A stretch of DNA of 64,000 bases from Candidatus Dojkabacteria bacterium (lineage in GTDB: Bacteria > Patescibacteriota > Dojkabacteria > B142 > JAFGMG01). A program made the translations under genes and the position numbers. Position 1 is the stretch's first letter, and each line of letters begins with the position of its first letter. The stretch covers positions 115,599 to 179,598 of the forward strand of contig JAFGMG010000001.1 in NCBI GenBank assembly GCA_016927655.1, in the 5' to 3' direction. Below are positions 2,390 through 10,346 of this stretch, piece by piece. The notes under the pieces are model-generated. The model saw only the letters and a list, made by a program, of their open reading frames with translations. It was not told the DNA's origin and ran no database searches.

Positions 2390-3352
2390 TTACAAGTAGC
2401 CTGCTACTTGAGAATACCAGTTGGCGGCAATGATCGAATACCCGGATGTGTTCGGATGAGTTGAATCATACATCAGACTCGTTTTTGCCTGATGAGTCGA
2501 TGTATCATACAAATCCGACCAATTTGCAGTGAAGTATTTGTCATCTCCGGTAATTGAACTTGCCAATTTAGTGTTATAGTAAGAAATTGCCAGAGATCCC
2601 CATGTATCATATAAATTATTCGGAATAAATGCCGACAGAATCAATTTCGGATGGCTGCCATCCGGATTTGTGTGAGCTTTAACGGTATTTACTATCTGCT
2701 GGACCTCAGAAGCAGTTTGATTAACTACTGCATTAATTGTGTAAATATCGGCTTCTGCTATATCATTGCCGCCAACCATTAAAAGGACTACCTCTGGATT
2801 GTACTGGTTCAACCAGATGGATGTATTTGCCAGCACATTTTCTGCTTTGTAGCCATTTACGGCTTTGTTCACAACTGTGTATTCACCTGAGCCAAAAGCA
2901 CTATTAATTGAAGCCTGTAACTTTGCCGGATAGGTGCTTGAAGAGCCATTATATGGATAGCCGGCTGTAACGCTGTCTCCAAGGCATACAATATTTTCCG
3001 GCTCAGGCTCTGGAGTTGGTGCCGGAGTCGGCGTCGGGGCTGGCGTCGGAGTAGTTCCATCCTCAGTTCCATCCAAATCCTGCGAATTTGAACCAACACT
3101 GGAAGTACTATCTGTGTCAGATCGCCCCGCCCCATCTGGCAGATAAATATTTGCATTATCCCCTCTTCCATCAATATCAAAATTATAATTAATTTCCCCT
3201 TCCTCTGCTGCGCTTACATCCTGTTCATCCTGCTTATCATTGACAAAGACCCTAATCCAGCTGATTAAAACCAACAAAAACAAAGTAAAAATCAAAAACC
3301 CTACAAAAATCAGCCTGACATTTTTAGTTAGTCTTTTTTTTATCGACGTCAT
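2390..3352 (-). CDS. SGNH/GDSL family hydrolase with Pro-Thr-rich linker and N-terminal TM anchor
   Basis: GDSVTAGY block (GDSx catalytic Ser motif). TPTPAPTPTPAPTPEPEPE linker. N-terminal hydrophobic helix. Confidence 0.75.
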   Translation of the reverse strand: MTSIKKRLTKNVRLIFVGFLIFTLFLLVLISWIRVFVNDKQDEQDVSAAEEGEINYNFDIDGRGDNANIYLPDGAGRSDTDSTSSVGSNSQDLDGTEDGTTPTPAPTPTPAPTPEPEPENIVCLGDSVTAGYPYNGSSSTYPAKLQASINSAFGSGEYTVVNKAVNGYKAENVLANTSIWLNQYNPEVVLLMVGGNDIAEADIYTINAVVNQTASEVQQIVNTVKAHTNPDGSHPKLILSAFIPNNLYDTWGSLAISYYNTKLASSITGDDKYFTANWSDLYDTSTHQAKTSLMYDSTHPNTSGYSIIAANWYSQVAGYL

Positions 3353-3356
3353 CTAT

Positions 3357-4403
3357 TTACCTGCTATACAAAATTACAAATGTTCCACTTTCAAGAATGG
3401 CAACTCCCGGGTCTGCACCGTCCACTCTAGTGCCGGACTCCATAGTCCAACTCACCCCATCAGGCGAAATCGCGGATTTGACTCCATTGTCCGTTCCATA
3501 AAACCTCAATTTCCCCCCAATATTTATCACATCTCCAAGAAAAGTCATATCCGCATAAACGTCATCCTGTTGTATAAAGTCTATTCCTGTAGAAGATGTT
3601 GAATGAACATTCTTTTTTGTGCCGCTTACAGGCGCCGCACTCAGATCTTCCCCCGCTTCATGGAATGCTGTGTAATGGTGCCAGACACCATCGAAATACA
3701 CGACTGCAGGATCAAGGACCATCTGGCTTACCTCCAGCTGTTGCCCTTCGCTGACAAAAGTCCCATCAATTGTATCCGCCTTTGCGGAATATAGATTTGG
3801 GAACGCATCTCCCGGTGTCTGATATGTGAAATACAATCTGAAAGTGCCATCCTCTAGCTGCACCAAAGTAGGATCGACCGGATTTGGATTCGCCTCCATT
3901 TTTTGCGTGCTGCTTGTCAACCCGCTAAATTCAACTTTTTTAATTTTCGACCATGTTTGTCCACCGTCAGCAGAGATTGTGTAAACAATCTTGTCAAAAA
4001 GGCCCTCATTTACAAAAGAAAAATATTGGAAAGTTGCAATCAGATCTCCATCCCTGGTCGTTATCAGATTTGGGACGCCAGAATGACTCATGAAAAATTT
4101 ATCACCTGTAAAATCAAGTCCGTTGTTTGAACTCGAAAGATAGATATCCCCGTTCCATGGACCGGTATCAGCATTTTCCCCTCTTGCGATCCAGGCAGGC
4201 ATAGTATTGGTATCCTGTTCAAACACATCAGGTTCTAGGGAATAATCAATTTCCAAAATACTATTTTGACTGTCTTGTTTTTCATCATTCAAATCCTCTT
4301 TTTCATTGTCCCCAGGCAGCAAGAAAACTGCAATAAGTACGCCCAACAGGACAAGAAGGAATATAATTACCCCAATAAGCACCACTATAATTTTCCTGCT
4401 CAT
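3357..4403 (-). CDS. BNR-repeat (sialidase-like) glycosyl hydrolase, membrane anchored
   Basis: SADGGQTW matches the BNR/Asp-box SxDxGxTW. N-terminal TM helix. Beta-propeller-like composition. Confidence 0.55.
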   Translation of the reverse strand: MSRKIIVVLIGVIIFLLVLLGVLIAVFLLPGDNEKEDLNDEKQDSQNSILEIDYSLEPDVFEQDTNTMPAWIARGENADTGPWNGDIYLSSSNNGLDFTGDKFFMSHSGVPNLITTRDGDLIATFQYFSFVNEGLFDKIVYTISADGGQTWSKIKKVEFSGLTSSTQKMEANPNPVDPTLVQLEDGTFRLYFTYQTPGDAFPNLYSAKADTIDGTFVSEGQQLEVSQMVLDPAVVYFDGVWHHYTAFHEAGEDLSAAPVSGTKKNVHSTSSTGIDFIQQDDVYADMTFLGDVINIGGKLRFYGTDNGVKSAISPDGVSWTMESGTRVDGADPGVAILESGTFVILYSR

Positions 4404-6259: not shown

Positions 6260-7027
6260 CTATCCTCTCAATGTCCCCGAGAAAACCTGCCATGCCAGGG
6301 CCGACTTGGCAAGCAGACTCAAAACTATATACATTCTTTCTCCAAACAAGTAATTTCTCCAGGGCCCGATTTTTTTGTACTGAAGGAACATATTGATAGC
6401 AAAAATATTGAAAAACAAGAAAAGCGAAATCAAAATTCCATAGACAAAAGTTGGAACTGAGTCTGAATAATTGTTAAGCGCTCCGTAGAAATACATTGCG
6501 ATAACGATCCAAGGAACAATTCCTGCAATGCAGCCAAATACAAAGCTCAGCCAGTTTGTTTTCTTTGTGGTTTGATTGTGCACTTCCATGATAAGCCCAA
6601 AGAAAATCATCATGGCGTTTAAAGTAAATATCAAAATCAAACTTGATAAATCATACATCCCGGAAAGCATAGCAATAATAACAATCATTAAAGAAGAACT
6701 GAAAGCATACTCATACCATCTAAGATAGTTGATTTTCTTTTTAAGATTCTCAACGTACCACTCATAAACAACCGGTAAAGTGAGCAGGAGATGCGCTAGT
6801 GCGGATATAAACAAGAACCCCGCTACTACAGGACCAATTTGAAGAGATGCCACCTCAACCGCATTTGGTGCAACGGAATTTTGGAAAGAATCATAGTCAA
6901 GATAAGAGGTTGTAATCGGCAGACTAAAACCATTACTTAAAACAAGCATTAAAACACCTTGAGCAAAATGTAAAATGGCCATAATGCCATTAAAGATTCT
7001 CAGATTCCGGAATTTCGTTTCGTCCAT
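6260..7027 (-). CDS. Heliorhodopsin (7-TM retinal protein, inverted topology)
   Basis: 255 aa, seven predicted TM helices. Strong similarity to heliorhodopsin hallmark segments: WYEYAFSSSLMIVIIA, FGCIAGIVPW, GERMYIVLSLLAKSALAWQVFSGTL (Lys in last helix = Schiff-base position). Confidence 0.8.
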   Translation of the reverse strand: MDETKFRNLRIFNGIMAILHFAQGVLMLVLSNGFSLPITTSYLDYDSFQNSVAPNAVEVASLQIGPVVAGFLFISALAHLLLTLPVVYEWYVENLKKKINYLRWYEYAFSSSLMIVIIAMLSGMYDLSSLILIFTLNAMMIFFGLIMEVHNQTTKKTNWLSFVFGCIAGIVPWIVIAMYFYGALNNYSDSVPTFVYGILISLFLFFNIFAINMFLQYKKIGPWRNYLFGERMYIVLSLLAKSALAWQVFSGTLRG

Positions 7028-7347: not shown

Positions 7348-7419
7348 GGGTTCGTAGCTCAATGGTAGAGCAACCGGCTCTTAACCGGTAGGTTGTGGGT
7401 TCGAGTCCCACCGGACTCA
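7348..7419 (+). tRNA. tRNA-Lys (anticodon CTT)
   Basis: Acceptor gggttcg/cggactc, D-arm gctc-aatggta-gagc, anticodon arm accgg-CTCTTAA-ccggt, T-arm gtggg-ttcgagt-cccac. 72 nt. Confidence 0.7.
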
Positions 7420-8912: not shown

Positions 8913-8968
8913 GGGGTTGTAGCTCAATTGGTTAGAGCATCCCGGTCTTACCGGGAGGGTCGCGAGTT
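8913..8968 (+). pseudogene. Truncated tRNA gene copy (5' acceptor, D-arm, Lys-CTT-type anticodon arm, T-stem 5' strand) interrupted in the T-loop
   Basis: The first 27 nt (ggggttgtagctcaattggttagagca) are identical to intact tRNA-Asp at 9230. The anticodon arm tcccg-GTCTTAC-cggga carries a Lys(CTT) anticodon. Sequence follows the tRNA through gcgag-tt, then diverges (ttagaattggcac-ATG), so there is no 3' acceptor strand. Confidence 0.55.
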
Positions 8969-8981
8969 TTAGAATTGGCAC

Positions 8982-9239
8982 ATGTTTGCAGTTTATATAC
9001 TAAAAAGTGAAAAATTTGACCGATATTATATTGGGAGTACAGGAAATATCAAAGATCGTCTGAGAAGGCATAACGAAGGGAGAGAAAAATATACAAAGAA
9101 ATATGCACCTTGGGAACTAAAATATAAAAAATATTTTAATACAAGATCAGAAGCAGTACGATTTGAGAATCATATAAAGGAACAGAAGGATAGAAGTTAC
9201 ATTGAAAACTTAATCTTAGAAGAGAAAGCGGGGTTGTAG
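8982..9239 (+). CDS. Small GIY-YIG nuclease-family protein (YhbQ/UPF0213-like, 85 aa)
   Basis: N-terminal VYILKSEKFDRYYIGSTGNIKDRLRRHNEG = GIY-(x10)-YIG motif with conserved Arg and His/Asn. The stop codon TAG (9237-9239) lies inside tRNA-Asp. Confidence 0.8.
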   Translation: MFAVYILKSEKFDRYYIGSTGNIKDRLRRHNEGREKYTKKYAPWELKYKKYFNTRSEAVRFENHIKEQKDRSYIENLILEEKAGL

Positions 9240-9303
9240 CTCAATTGGTTAGAGCACTCGCCTGTCACGCGAGAGGTCGCGAGTTCGAATCTCGTCAGCC
9301 CCG
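9230..9303 (+). tRNA. tRNA-Asp (anticodon GTC)
   Basis: Acceptor ggggttg/cagcccc (one G-U pair), D-arm gctc-aattggtta-gagc, anticodon arm ctcgc-CTGTCAC-gcgag, T-arm gcgag-ttcgaat-ctcgt, discriminator G. 74 nt. Confidence 0.8.
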
Positions 9304-9560
9304 CTTTCTCTTTTCATTATTCCCATTTCAATTGATTAAAGCATCCCGGTCTTACCGGGAAGGTCGCGAGTCCCGGTAAATCCATAGATTTACCGAGGAT
9401 CCTCGATTTTGTAACCAAAATAAAATTTTGGATAAAATCGGGATTCGAATCTCGTCAGCCCCGCTTTCTCTTTTCATTATTCCCATTTCAATTAATTAGA
9501 GCATCCCGGTCTTACCGGGAAGGTCGCGAGTCCCGCTAAATCCATAGATTTACCGAGGAT
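9284..9560 (+). repeat. Two tandem copies (period 160 bp, about 117 bp each, about 97% identical) of a unit containing the tRNA-Asp T-loop/3' end, a degenerate D-arm, and a Lys(CTT)-type anticodon arm + T-stem fragment
   Basis: 9284-9400 and 9444-9560 align with 3 mismatches. Each contains ttcgaatctcgtcagccccg, then ctttctcttttcattattcccatttcaatt.att.a.gca, then tcccggtcttaccgggaaggtcgcgag, then a hairpin ggtaaatc-cata-gatttacc. There is no 5' acceptor strand, so they cannot fold as tRNAs. Confidence 0.7.
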
Positions 9561-9623
9561 GCCCGAATGGGTGCCCCGCCACTTATTATCGACTCCCATA
9601 TTCCTTCCTGCTAAAATACCCAC

Positions 9624-10346
9624 ATGGAACTTAAAATCTTTAGTCTAAATTGCTGGCTCTTGCCGCCGCCCTTTTCGATAAACAACCAAAAAAGACTGAA
9701 CAATATTGTTTCAACAATCAAAGTATGCCGCCCGGATATAATCGCTTTACAAGAAATCTGGCTTAATAGATATATCAAAGAAATTGAAGAGCGATTGCAG
9801 GGATATTCCTTTGTAAAATCCAATTCAAGTATTATTAATAAAAGCGGCCTTCTAACAGGTATTAGAAAAGAAGCTGCAGATTTCGAAGTTAATTATTTCC
9901 CGCAGCATTCAGAATATGGACTGTTTGAGAAGATAGCCCGCAAAGGCTATCATACAATCAAATTAAATGAAGATCTATCATTTATCAATACCCATCTATA
10001 CTGCTCAAGAGCTATGACCGGCGAACTTATAAAAAAGACTCAATTCAAATTCCTCCAAAAATTATTCCCCACTCAAAAAGTAATCCTTGGAGGAGATTTA
10101 AATATTAATGAAAAATTACTTGCGAAATTAAATACAAGATTTGTATATGACAAATCACAAGGATCGACAGTTTCTTATACAAACGCTCTAACTAGAGCGA
10201 GATTCAATAGATTTGGCGTTCCAGATCATAAAGTTGATTATATTCTCATCTCAAAGGATACCGGCGCATCAATAACAACCAGGTATATCAAAAACCCAAT
10301 CGTATCAGATCATTACATGCTGCTATCAGATGTTAAAATAACATAA
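9624..10346 (+). CDS. Endonuclease/exonuclease/phosphatase (EEP) family protein
   Basis: N-terminal IFSLNCW...DIIALQEIW is the conserved EEP fold start (Mg-binding Asn/Glu). C-terminal SDHY motif. Stop overlaps the start of the next gene (taATGg). Confidence 0.6.
   Translation: MELKIFSLNCWLLPPPFSINNQKRLNNIVSTIKVCRPDIIALQEIWLNRYIKEIEERLQGYSFVKSNSSIINKSGLLTGIRKEAADFEVNYFPQHSEYGLFEKIARKGYHTIKLNEDLSFINTHLYCSRAMTGELIKKTQFKFLQKLFPTQKVILGGDLNINEKLLAKLNTRFVYDKSQGSTVSYTNALTRARFNRFGVPDHKVDYILISKDTGASITTRYIKNPIVSDHYMLLSDVKIT

Follow-up and report, generated by a model that had tools for sequence, protein, structure and literature searches.

The segment 8913-9581 of the window (the whole 64,000-nucleotide stretch of DNA that was analysed) is probably a single locus at which an Ssn-type nuclease system lies within a tRNA operon. 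We regard it as a tRNA-embedded variant of the NTS-ssnA-NTS architecture: a small GIY-YIG nuclease gene sits between an upstream partial copy of tRNA-Asp and the intact tRNA-Asp, and two downstream modules follow (Table 1). Four observations carry this reading, namely the anatomy of the locus, the linkage of gene, hairpin and tRNA throughout the family, covariation in the hairpin stem, and recurrent tandem amplification. Chenal et al. described the Ssn family in 2025 (PMC11893778). SsnA-family single-domain GIY-YIG nucleases bind the NTS/SRM hairpin on single-stranded DNA; in vitro, SsnA itself binds it in no other form and cuts a few nucleotides upstream of it (PMC11893778). The discussion of the same paper left open what role Ssn has outside Neisseria and whether NTS-ssnA-NTS units are, or once were, mobile.

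Table 1. Features of the locus, in window coordinates
Feature	Coordinates	Strand	Description
Upstream module	8913-8968	+	tRNA-Asp positions 1 to ~56, with a hairpin in the place of the anticodon arm
Hairpin a	8940-8956	+	TCCCGG-TCTTA-CCGGGA; NTS/SRM-like core at the anticodon-arm position
GIY-YIG nuclease gene (Ssn-like)	8982-9239	+	85 aa, single domain; PF01541, E = 2.5e-16, residues 2-71
Leader/trailer pairing	9220-9312	+	10 bp; inverted repeat of 9220-9229 (aagagaaagc) with 9303-9312 (gctttctctt)
Intact tRNA-Asp(GTC)	9230-9304	+	ARAGORN; Rfam tRNA 73.2 bits; CCA not encoded
Downstream module 2	9317-9463	+	Pseudo-tRNA-Asp without 5' acceptor strand
Hairpin b	9344-9360	+	Identical to hairpin a
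T-loop hairpin 1	9371-9399	+	TCCCGGTAAATC-CATA-GATTTACCGaGGA; outer bases of TCCCG/CGGGA type, one bulged A
T-loop hairpin 2	9400-9443	+	TCCtCGATTTT...AAAATCGGGA, inner hairpin CCAAAAT/ATTTTGG; segment B of A-B-A'-C
Second copy of tRNA-Asp T-loop, 3' T-stem, 3' acceptor strand and 13-nt trailer	9444-9476	+	33/33 bases identical to 9284-9316
Downstream module 3	9477-9559	+	Degenerate D arm, hairpin c, variable loop, 5' T-stem, T-loop hairpin 1'
Hairpin c	9504-9520	+	Anticodon-arm hairpin inside module 3
T-loop hairpin 1'	9531-9559	+	One pair broken
Putative diverged tRNA 3' end	9560-9581	+	tgcc-cgaat-gggtg-ccccg-cca, read directly from the sequence

What an earlier note had described as a 160-bp-period tandem duplication corresponds to downstream modules 2 and 3, which follow one another after the intact tRNA-Asp. 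The two copies themselves are real: an ungapped comparison of 9284-9443 with 9444-9603 returned the 117-bp copies reported before (9284-9400 and 9444-9560), with mismatches at 9334/9494, 9339/9499 and 9376/9536 and nowhere else. Beyond 9400/9560, the likeness of the copies collapses; the layout is therefore A-B-A'-C and no clean head-to-tail array. Because the unit is repeated only in part, Tandem Repeats Finder gave zero rows for the repeat when run on the window. Both copies start with ttcgaatctcgtcagccccg, the T-loop and 3' acceptor strand of tRNA-Asp, which was found twice against an expectation of 0, and the degenerate D arm that the note placed next is present in modules 2 and 3. A perfect 8-bp hairpin had been assigned to each copy, but it is perfect only in the first; a G-to-C change breaks one pair in the second, and the stem is really of about 12 bp (TCCCGGTAAATC/GATTTACCGaGGA). 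The view that this is no ordinary intergenic DNA is borne out. The segment is built of tRNA-Asp-derived pieces, and its unit is better read as a trailer followed by a pseudo-tRNA-Asp with extra T-loop hairpins than as a tRNA 3' end plus fragments.

The modules share one plan. The upstream module contains the 5' acceptor strand, D arm, variable loop, 5' T-stem and the bases TT, and it is truncated in the T-loop, 13 nt ahead of the ORF start. Its first 27 bases all match the 5' end of the intact tRNA-Asp, the next 36-44 nt are 93-97% identical to the downstream modules, and the alignment of its hairpin flanks to the tRNA stops at position 27 and starts again at 45. Taken whole, the module scores 20.6 bits as a tRNA, below the gathering score of 29. 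Read from 5' to 3', module 2 has a degenerate D arm; where the anticodon arm would follow there is a hairpin, after which come the variable loop, the 5' T-stem, two extra hairpins at the T-loop, and finally the T-loop, 3' T-stem and 3' acceptor strand. Folded as single-stranded DNA, 9305-9475 reaches -32.3 kcal/mol (z = -5.6) and forms three hairpins enclosed by the T-stem. T-loop hairpin 2 is present only in module 2. Module 3 may be completed by a diverged tRNA 3' end with CCA immediately behind it, an assignment possible at low confidence.

The nuclease gene occurs once in the window, and its stop codon, TAG, falls on positions 8-10 of the tRNA-Asp gene. It is one of a large family of small GIY-YIG genes. 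Residues Y5, Y16, R26, H30 and E62 of its product are invariant in an alignment of 11 homologues, and the AlphaFold2 model (pLDDT 91.4) shows the GIY-YIG fold and nothing else. SsnA of Neisseria meningitidis, with 94 aa and catalytic Y6, Y17 and E64 (PMC11893778), is a similarly small single-domain protein, and the spacing of Y5, Y16 and E62 in the 85 residues encoded here matches it. The layout is also like NTS-ssnA-NTS, the gene lying between co-oriented hairpin repeats, with hairpin a 26 nt upstream and hairpins b and c downstream. The best matches among solved structures are the UPF0213 proteins BH0048 (PDB 1zg2, E = 1.4e-15) and EF2693 (PDB 1ywl, E = 7.9e-14); no Ssn structure from the PDB is among the structure matches, and no Neisseria protein is among the best 120 matches of the profile search. 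Neither tblastn against plasmids nor a look-up of the exact product gave a match. The proposed likeness to Ssn rests on size, catalytic spacing, hairpin core and flanking layout; the nearest solved structures are of UPF0213, a sister group of small GIY-YIG proteins. UPF0213 proteins are of similar size and fold, but they are ~32% identical to the window protein and carry a G-x-G-A-K-Y-T motif, where the family of the latter has G-R-x-K-x-T-K. We know of no hairpin or tRNA linkage for UPF0213.

Judged by its sequence, the arm TCCCGGTCTTACCGGGA is a predicted Ssn-type nuclease-associated DNA hairpin and no relic of tRNA-Lys. It occurs three times on the + strand, against 0.04 expected, and the hairpins are confined to the locus, none being found elsewhere in the 64-kb window. 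By eye, its core TCCCGGT-CT-TACCGGG fits the central SRM pattern YYVSBRH N0-5 WNVSBRG. The Neisseria NTS is CGTCATTCCCGCGMAVGCGGGAATCYRG; therefore, NTS and the window hairpin have the core TCCCG..CGGGA in common. Some relatives come close to identity with NTS, such as TCCCGCGGAGCGGGA in locus L053 and TCCCGCAAAGCGGGA in L011. As in NTS/SRM, where the palindrome core is TCCCG(C)...(G)CGGGA, the inner stem and loop vary between lineages. Across the family, the outer pairs TCCCG/CGGGA are constant and the inner stem varies in a compensating manner: at pair 6, 68 of 73 unique hairpins have a Watson-Crick pair, four pair types being represented, and at pair 7, 51 of 53 do. The L010 hairpin, TTCCGG..CCGGAA, keeps the same loop as that of the window. 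The full published SRM pattern with its flanks (HGTCWY ... RNCYNB) matches nothing in the window and none of the hairpins at 86 related loci, because the flanks are tRNA-derived (..AGAGCA before, RGGTC after) and not CGTCAT / ATCYRG; its only matches in those loci, in L004 and L005, both lie inside the ORF. If flanks set recognition, as in Neisseria, those in use here would differ.

The earlier note had counted three Lys-like anticodon arms around a single intact Asp gene. Three identical arms and one intact tRNA-Asp are indeed there, but the arms are not Lys. An exact-pattern scan of 185,579 species representatives found the Lys(CTT)-type arm TCCCGGTCTTACCGGGA in no genuine tRNA; its single match, in non-tRNA DNA of a Proteobacteria contig, is a chance one, and the same stem stands beside many tRNA types. 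A 27-mer scan of metagenome contigs gave no match. Nor is there a tRNA-Lys pseudogene, for ARAGORN and Rfam find nothing at 9305-9600 and the 5' acceptor strand is absent. The intact tRNA-Lys(CTT) at 7348 does have a different arm, as had been noted. Three further tRNA readings were rejected: an intron in the T-loop, a split or permuted gene, and alternative splicing that yields a tRNA(CUU). All three fail because a 5' acceptor strand is lacking and the hairpins of relatives cannot form anticodon arms; no Rfam intron family matches at the locus.

Further evidence comes from comparison with 86 loci that carry related GIY-YIG genes, in which strict hairpins (TCCCG-N3-11-CGGGA) and a relaxed motif were scored separately, with mononucleotide shuffles as the control. 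Strict hairpin sites number 104, and 98 of these lie no more than 300 nt from the ORF; shuffled sequences give 0.64. The relaxed motif lies within 300 nt in 74 of the 86 loci, on both sides of the ORF in 33. A co-oriented tRNA is found within 100 nt in 60 of the 86, and 114 of 116 tRNAs are co-oriented with the ORF. The partners include tRNA-Gly, Val, Pro, Ala, Met, Ser and others, and the same TCCCG...CGGGA stem, with other loops, stands in partial copies of at least 15 tRNA species across phyla. Usually the hairpin takes the exact place of the local tRNA's anticodon arm within the partial copy (flanks aligning up to position 24-30 and resuming at 42-47 at ~43 sites), and sometimes that of the T arm (up to ~50, resuming at ~59-67, at no fewer than six sites). 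A second hairpin at the T-arm position, as in the window, was seen in L014, L018, L073 and L085. In 15 of 30 cases, against 4.3 expected, the hairpin loop retains the anticodon triplet of its partner tRNA, which a simple model of a foreign hairpin pasted into a tRNA does not explain.

Upstream modules are 5' tRNA portions and downstream modules 3' portions, and the 30-50-nt overlap between them holds the hairpin. Seven of eight upstream modules start at tRNA position 1 and seven of eight end 15-25 nt short of the tRNA 3' end; among 22 downstream modules, 19 start at positions 8-21 and 15 reach the 3' end. The overlap forms a direct repeat around the ORF and one intact tRNA. Module boundaries scatter over ~10 nt, and we dropped any inference of exact cut sites from them for that reason. 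Tandem ORF-plus-module copies occur in 12 loci; five modules stand in tandem in L058, and L010 carries a chimeric module in duplicate. The tRNA-embedded layout recurs across many uncultivated bacteria, and the same design is present in named Zixibacteria, Chlorobiaceae and Ignavibacteriae genomes. We found no published description of it in the literature on GIY-YIG, SsnA, pseudo-tRNA, CPR/Patescibacteria and COG2827/UPF0213/YhbQ.

How might such a locus arise? By analogy with SsnA (PMC11893778), the protein would bind and cut single-stranded DNA. It may nick hairpins that are extruded when transcription or replication leaves the tRNA operon single-stranded; modules would then be created and amplified during repair, through template switching or unequal recombination among the tRNA-derived repeats, and the intact tRNA-Asp inside the cassette would preserve function. 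Nuclease-stimulated recombination is thus a plausible source of the duplication. The earlier note had likewise named an adjacent nuclease as driver. A neighbouring nuclease is a likely one, but the relevant gene would be the GIY-YIG gene at 8982-9239 and not the Exo_endo_phos gene at 9624. More tentatively, and with rather less than even confidence, we propose that Ssn-type cassettes specifically colonise tRNA genes: they would copy a portion of the tRNA they target and write their own hairpin over its anticodon or T arm, in many cases with the anticodon loop retained. The outcome would be a cassette with a 30-50-nt duplication at its flanks and one intact tRNA inside it. A duplication of that length around the hairpin is what staggered nicks in single strands, one on each side of the extruded hairpin, would be expected to leave.

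Action of the modules as RNA is unlikely, although several features would suit it. The UCCCG/CGGGA-stem tRNA-like transcripts could serve as RNase P/Z processing signals, as decoys or as protein-binding sites that control the nuclease mRNA or the maturation of tRNA-Asp. All modules point in the same direction as the tRNAs and the ORF. Upstream of tRNA-Leu there is a promoter-like site, and the sequence as far as 9700 showed no terminator-like site. Stem covariation suits RNA as well as DNA, and loops often retain the partner's anticodon. The only intact tRNA-Asp also has a 10-bp leader/trailer stem, which lengthens its acceptor stem to 17 bp and whose trailer half sits in the repeated unit. 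This stem is absent at 18 other ORF-adjacent tRNAs and is not a family trait. Against an RNA role, SsnA shows no RNA binding in vitro and no activity on double-stranded DNA or RNA (PMC11893778). Downstream modules lack the 5' acceptor strand and upstream modules the 3' half, no Rfam family matches, and some hairpins are unable to imitate an anticodon arm, such as that of L006 with its 7-bp stem and 3-nt loop. Across relatives, the loops of the equivalent hairpins measure 3-6 nt and their stems 6-8 bp.

It is quite improbable that the modules are passive debris unrelated to the nuclease, produced as tRNA-Asp pseudogenes decayed and underwent ordinary slippage in replication or unequal crossing-over. 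The A-B-A'-C order, with short common motifs at the junctions, is compatible with illegitimate recombination, and the second copy already carries a stem-breaking change. Yet random decay would not give the same stem in so many tRNA species, nor the clustering of 98 of 104 sites around one gene family, and the stem changes are compensatory.

The earlier note also proposed att-like scars, here taken to mean that a tyrosine or serine recombinase repeatedly integrated and excised elements at the 3' end of tRNA-Asp; we consider this very improbable. A 33-nt tRNA 3' segment, from T-loop to discriminator plus trailer, is duplicated exactly, and L006 has a 33-nt 3' copy of tRNA-Asp beside a serine recombinase gene. 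However, the repeat holds D-arm, hairpin and 5' T-stem parts needless for att sites, and only 44 nt (9400-9443) separate the copies, and therefore there is no cargo. The neighbouring genes encode a heliorhodopsin, a K+ channel, the Exo_endo_phos protein, PMT_2, GT2 and a 572-aa membrane protein. Seven large ORFs lie between ~3 kb upstream and 5 kb downstream, and none is evidently a recombinase; the Pfam scan gave other assignments for five of them, the remaining two being the GT2 and 572-aa genes. The gene order downstream is conserved as syntenic core genes in another Dojkabacteria contig, which starts 89 nt before the Exo_endo_phos gene (two other contexts compared were not syntenic). Identity to the closest orthologue of that downstream gene is 54%.

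That the repeat was expanded or mis-joined in a metagenome-assembled genome has the slightest chance of all. The sequence comes from a metagenome bin, Logan contigs assembled independently from run SRR13394437 break here and inside nearby tRNAs, and the syntenic Dojkabacteria contig likewise ends just upstream of the Exo_endo_phos gene. But the copies differ at three positions and at their right-hand junctions, and multi-module arrays are common in independent assemblies of relatives. Moreover, one Logan contig begins at window 9506, the first 31-mer with the copy-2-specific C at 9536, and runs into the unique downstream gene; this implies both variants in the reads and fits two distinct copies.

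Known systems resemble the proposed tRNA-embedded Ssn locus in part. SegB of T-even phages is a multi-domain endonuclease of ~220 aa. Like the gene described here, segB is a GIY-YIG gene inside a tRNA cluster without preference for a tRNA isotype, and a unit of nuclease plus tRNA gene undergoes nuclease-dependent segmental tandem amplification via short homologies (PMC2330249, PMC13096335); double-strand breaks in tRNA-containing sequences have been attributed to SegB (PMC13096335). It differs in being phage-encoded, and no conserved flanking hairpin or arm-substituted pseudo-tRNAs have been described for it. A free-standing homing endonuclease of the Seg type was rejected, the 85-aa protein being a catalytic domain only, with no C-terminal DNA-binding domain. 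In REP/BIME elements with RAYT and in IS200/IS605, a small nuclease gene is flanked by hairpins recognised as single-stranded DNA, and composite arrays occur. The locus shares with them the small nuclease gene, the flanking hairpins and the clustering into arrays. Its nuclease, however, is a hydrolytic GIY-YIG and no HUH/Y1 transposase with a covalent intermediate, so it would not rejoin DNA on its own, and its hairpins stand in tRNA scaffolds. Integrase att sites in tRNA genes fall into anticodon-loop, T-loop and 3'-end classes. Duplicated tRNA 3' segments downstream of an intact tRNA and break points in the T-loop recall these sites; unlike them, the locus has no recombinase or cargo, its 5' tRNA portions are duplicated as well, and a conserved hairpin replaces an arm.

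Relative to Ssn/SRM itself, the hairpins stand in partial tRNA copies and are not free-standing intergenic repeats; PMC11893778 makes no mention of tRNA. Confinement to one locus also sets them apart from the hundreds of hairpin copies in Neisseria. The hosts here are CPR and the Zixibacteria/Chlorobi/Ignavibacteria group, whereas Ssn hosts are mainly Pseudomonadota. The tRNA-embedded form in these lineages makes the question of Ssn mobility concretely testable. The sequence and register of the scaffold around the putative recognition hairpin are known, the modules follow an order, with the 5' portion upstream and 3' portions downstream, and the overlap and tandem arrays record past recombination events. 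If cassettes do colonise tRNA genes, this would be the first natural footprint of movement or amplification of the Ssn family, and it would define a mobile or selfish element driven by a hydrolytic single-stranded-DNA nuclease, not by a transposase or recombinase. There is also a consequence for annotation: the hairpin is easily mistaken for the anticodon arm of another tRNA, as in the previous Lys reading, and tRNA finders call some modules tRNAs with odd anticodons ('Asp(ATC)', a type-I-size 'Leu(TAA)' and 'ctta').

Read from its sequence, the locus at 8913–9581 is best described as a tRNA-embedded form of the Ssn architecture, the arrangement recently reported for SsnA-family single-domain GIY-YIG nucleases and their hairpin repeats; for its protein, the nearest solved structures are UPF0213 proteins. 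It is the only repeat cluster of its type in the 64-kb window. Partial copies (modules) of tRNA-Asp lie on both sides of an 85-aa ORF and the intact tRNA. Upstream and downstream modules have 36–44 nt in common at 93–97% identity, so the ORF and the intact tRNA are bracketed by a direct repeat with a hairpin inside. Three occurrences of the 17-nt arm TCCCGGTCTTACCGGGA (8940, 9344, and 9504) compare with 0.04 expected. In module 2, two more hairpins sit precisely at the junction of the 5' T-stem with the T-loop, and after them come the T-loop, the 3' T-stem, and the 3' acceptor strand; these extra hairpins open with TCCCG or TCCtCG and close with CGaGGA or CGGGA. Folded as single-stranded DNA, 9305–9475 forms three hairpins enclosed by the T-stem (-32.3 kcal/mol, z = -5.6). 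A perfect 10-bp leader/trailer pairing (9220–9229 with 9303–9312) lengthens the acceptor stem of tRNA-Asp to 17 bp; its leader half codes for the C-terminus of the GIY-YIG protein, its trailer half lies within the repeated unit, and none of 18 other tRNAs next to an ORF in related loci has this pairing. No CCA is encoded by the intact tRNA-Asp, and the segment directly 3' of the second copy may be the displaced original tRNA 3' end.

Features of the locus in the window, a neighboring gene, and modules of related loci called as tRNAs by ARAGORN
Feature	Sequence	Position	Strand	Description
Heliorhodopsin gene	window	6260-7027	-	PF18761, E = 3.3e-101; adjoins a K+ channel gene and the tRNA cluster
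Upstream module	window	8913-8968		tRNA-Asp positions 1 to ~56, 17-nt hairpin for anticodon arm, break in T-loop
85-aa ORF	window	8982-9239		stop codon within tRNA positions 8-10
Intact tRNA-Asp	window	9230-9304		followed by 13-nt trailer
Module 2	window	9317-9463		degenerate D arm, no 5' acceptor strand, hairpin at anticodon arm, variable loop, 5' T-stem
Repeated trailer	window	between modules 2 and 3		same trailer as after intact tRNA-Asp
Module 3	window	9477-9559		matches module 2 through first T-loop hairpin
Candidate diverged tRNA 3' end	window	9560-9581		tgcccgaatgggtgccccgcca, encoded CCA, directly 3' of copy 2
ARAGORN-called module	L004	2746-2825		Asp(ATC)
ARAGORN-called module	L038	2235-2307		Ala(TGC)
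ARAGORN-called module	L042	297-369		73-nt Leu(TAA)
ARAGORN-called module	L069	537-619		Pro(AGG)

The ORF product is the GIY-YIG catalytic domain alone (PF01541, E = 2.5e-16), and no second gene of this kind is present across the 64-kb window. Its AlphaFold2 model (pLDDT 91.4) finds UPF0213 proteins, SLX1, I-TevI, and UvrC as top structural matches, and residues Y5, Y16, R26, H30, and E62 are invariant in an alignment of the first homologues. A profile search with a cutoff of E <= 1e-8 returned at least 2195 proteins; those from named organisms belong to several CPR lineages, Zixibacteria, Chlorobi, and Ignavibacteria. Some family members (P0007, P0010, P0028, and P0038 are the examples) show annotation artefacts that are typical for loci of this kind: gene calls run on through the neighboring tRNA gene, with the N-terminal '...GRGFESRLP' being a translated T arm, and two entries of 179–191 aa resemble fused tandem copies.

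Gene, hairpin, and tRNA are linked in this way across phyla. We compared 86 loci, comprising six contexts from an exact protein look-up and 80 metagenome loci with relatives at 41–56% identity; several of the counts take in near-duplicate loci, such as L007–L009, L080/L082, and L004/L005. In the six contexts, a real tRNA (Asp or Gly) stands on one side of the gene and a partial copy of the same tRNA on the other; in that copy the anticodon arm is swapped for a hairpin starting with TCCCG and ending with CGGGA. A co-oriented tRNA is found within 100 nt of the ORF in 60/86 loci and within 400 nt in 70/86, and of the 116 tRNAs, 114 share the orientation of the ORF. The linked species are Asp, Val, Gly, Pro, Ala, Met, Ser, Leu, Thr, Cys, Glu, Tyr, Asn, Lys, and Phe. 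Nearest-neighbor protein pairs have the same tRNA species in 32/62 cases versus 10% expected, so a given association persists, yet has switched many times. Named genomes include Zixibacteria (tRNA-Asp, in the order of the window), Chlorobiaceae (tRNA-Gly, within a Tyr-Gly-Thr-Trp-rpmG-secE-nusG cluster), and Ignavibacteriae (tRNA-Ser, same design). The strict motif TCCCG-N3-11-CGGGA occurs at 104 sites in the 86 loci, of which 98 lie no more than 300 nt from an ORF, versus 0.64 in shuffles; with one mismatch allowed, it lies near the ORF in 74/86 loci, 33 of which have it on both sides. The stem is constant in its outer five pairs, with covariation in the next ones: pairing is Watson-Crick at pair 6 in 68/73 unique hairpins (A-T 41, C-G 16, T-A 8, G-C 3) and at pair 7 in 51/53.

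Aligning both hairpin flanks to the nearest real tRNA defined the position of the hairpin in the tRNA scaffold. At ~43 sites, counted by hand from the flank-alignment table, the 5' flank runs to tRNA positions 24–30 and the 3' flank resumes from 42–47, so that exactly the anticodon arm is replaced. At six or more sites the T arm is replaced instead, the flank stopping at ~50 and restarting at ~59–67. The modules are ordered and their duplicated parts overlap. Under strict filters, 7/8 upstream modules begin at tRNA position 1 and 7/8 end 15–25 nt before the tRNA 3' end, whereas 19/22 downstream modules begin at positions 8–21 and 15/22 reach the tRNA 3' end; the modules of the window fit this pattern exactly. 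The bracket encloses the intact tRNA, which may be 5' or 3' of the ORF. The hairpin loop holds the anticodon of the partner tRNA in 15/30 cases versus 4.3 expected, although some matches come from the stem; a simple pasted-in hairpin does not explain this retention. ARAGORN calls some complete modules tRNAs with odd anticodons.

The closest known system is SsnA of Neisseria meningitidis, a 94-aa single-domain GIY-YIG protein with catalytic Y6, Y17, and E64 (PMC11893778; Chenal et al. 2025), which binds the NTS repeat CGTCATTCCCGCGMAVGCGGGAATCYRG as single-stranded DNA only and cuts a few nucleotides upstream (PMC11893778). SsnA homologues number in the thousands (CDD cd10448) and are typically flanked on both sides by related hairpins, termed SRM; the authors likened NTS-ssnA-NTS to an insertion sequence and left the role outside Neisseria open (PMC11893778). 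The NTS palindrome core, TCCCGC..GCGGGA, is the motif of the loci described here. The degenerate SRM search sequence including flanks matches none of our hairpins: the central part of the pattern fits, but the flanks differ and are tRNA-derived in this subfamily. The word 'tRNA' is absent from PMC11893778, we found no description of the tRNA-embedded form in the literature, and it appears undescribed so far. A functional analogue is SegB, a GIY-YIG homing endonuclease of T-even phage tRNA clusters, tied to tRNA genes of all isotypes, which drives segmental amplification of a tRNA + segB unit via microhomology (PMC2330249; PMC13096335).

By analogy with SsnA (PMC11893778), the nuclease may recognize single-stranded hairpins and cut upstream of them. 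Hairpins would be extruded when the tRNA operon becomes single-stranded in transcription or replication; a promoter-like site lies upstream of tRNA-Leu, with no terminator-like site following. Nicks at the hairpins could then cause template switching or unequal recombination among tRNA-derived repeats, generating and amplifying modules, while the intact tRNA within the bracket would maintain function. Module boundaries in the D and T arms, flanking a palindromic hairpin, would fit staggered two-strand nicks followed by fill-in, which would yield a 30–50-nt duplication; the boundaries are too scattered to call a cut site.

It is possible that the tRNA-like modules act instead at the RNA level, as suggested by their co-orientation, the stem covariation, and the retained anticodon loops; against this, acceptor strands are missing, and SsnA, inactive on dsDNA and RNA (PMC11893778), shows no RNA binding. 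In Rfam, the upstream fragment reaches only a sub-threshold tRNA score (20.6 bits), and the downstream copies match nothing.

The repeat that the earlier note placed at 9284–9560 is a real feature. Its two 117-bp copies (9284–9400 and 9444–9560) differ by 3 mismatches, as claimed; at the start of both stand the tRNA-Asp T-loop, 3' T-stem, and 3' acceptor strand (a 20-mer found twice versus 0 expected), and only one intact tRNA-Asp exists. The downstream hairpin, described as perfect, is so in copy 1 only. Similarity ends abruptly beyond 117 bp, giving an A-B-A'-C layout in which the 44-nt segment B (9400–9443) is present once, which is why Tandem Repeats Finder calls no repeat here. An assembly artefact behind the duplication is unlikely: in the independent Logan assembly of run SRR13394437, a contig begins at window position 9506, the first 31-mer with the copy-2-specific C at 9536, and extends into unique downstream genes, as a de Bruijn graph behaves with both variants in the reads. 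Logan contigs of this run (L003, L002) break in tRNA-Lys (window ~7383), in tRNA-Leu (~8807), and at 9506, and the syntenic Dojkabacteria contig L092 likewise begins just upstream of the Exo_endo_phos gene; the region around the tRNAs and the repeat is systematically hard to assemble. The GIY-YIG and downstream Exo_endo_phos proteins are each 100% identical to an NCBI Candidatus Dojkabacteria (CPR) entry, and no close sister genome was found in the collections searched.

The same note had offered att-like scars of integration as one reading of the repeats. Of the seven large ORFs between about 3 kb upstream and 5 kb downstream, five have other Pfam assignments and none is an evident recombinase, and cargo is lacking as well. 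Passive decay cannot explain the same TCCCG/CGGGA stem in copies of 15 different tRNA species. The supposed Lys-like arms are not tRNA-Lys debris. At the related locus L006 (2763–2875), an exact 33-nt copy of the 3' part of tRNA-Asp, CCA included, comes after that tRNA, a classical att-like duplication and a process distinct from the hairpin modules; a serine recombinase gene comes next (2862–4337), beside the GIY-YIG locus.

Tandem amplification is a family trait, and the two downstream modules of the window are one more case of it. At least two tandem copies of ORF + module occur in 12 of the 86 loci, and arrays of modules without an ORF are also present (L058, L080, L082, and L010). L080 and L082 have four modules each, and L058 has five tandem upstream modules with a 75-nt period (1440–1800). 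In the Asp-linked L010, two upstream modules (595–770) carry TTCCGGTCTTAACCGGAA (TTCCGG-TCTTAA-CCGGAA), with the loop of the window and a compensated change at pair 2. The second of these, a duplicated chimeric module, joins a tRNA-Asp 5' part to a tRNA-Val 3' part and Val trailer and is thus the record of a duplication that spanned two tRNA genes; in the ARAGORN output it appears as a tRNA whose anticodon has 4 bases, 'ctta'. The L058 hairpin loops CTAACGA, CTGACAA, and CTTACGA are the canonical anticodon loops of three tRNA-Val isoacceptors, set within a TCCCGA../..TCGGGA stem.
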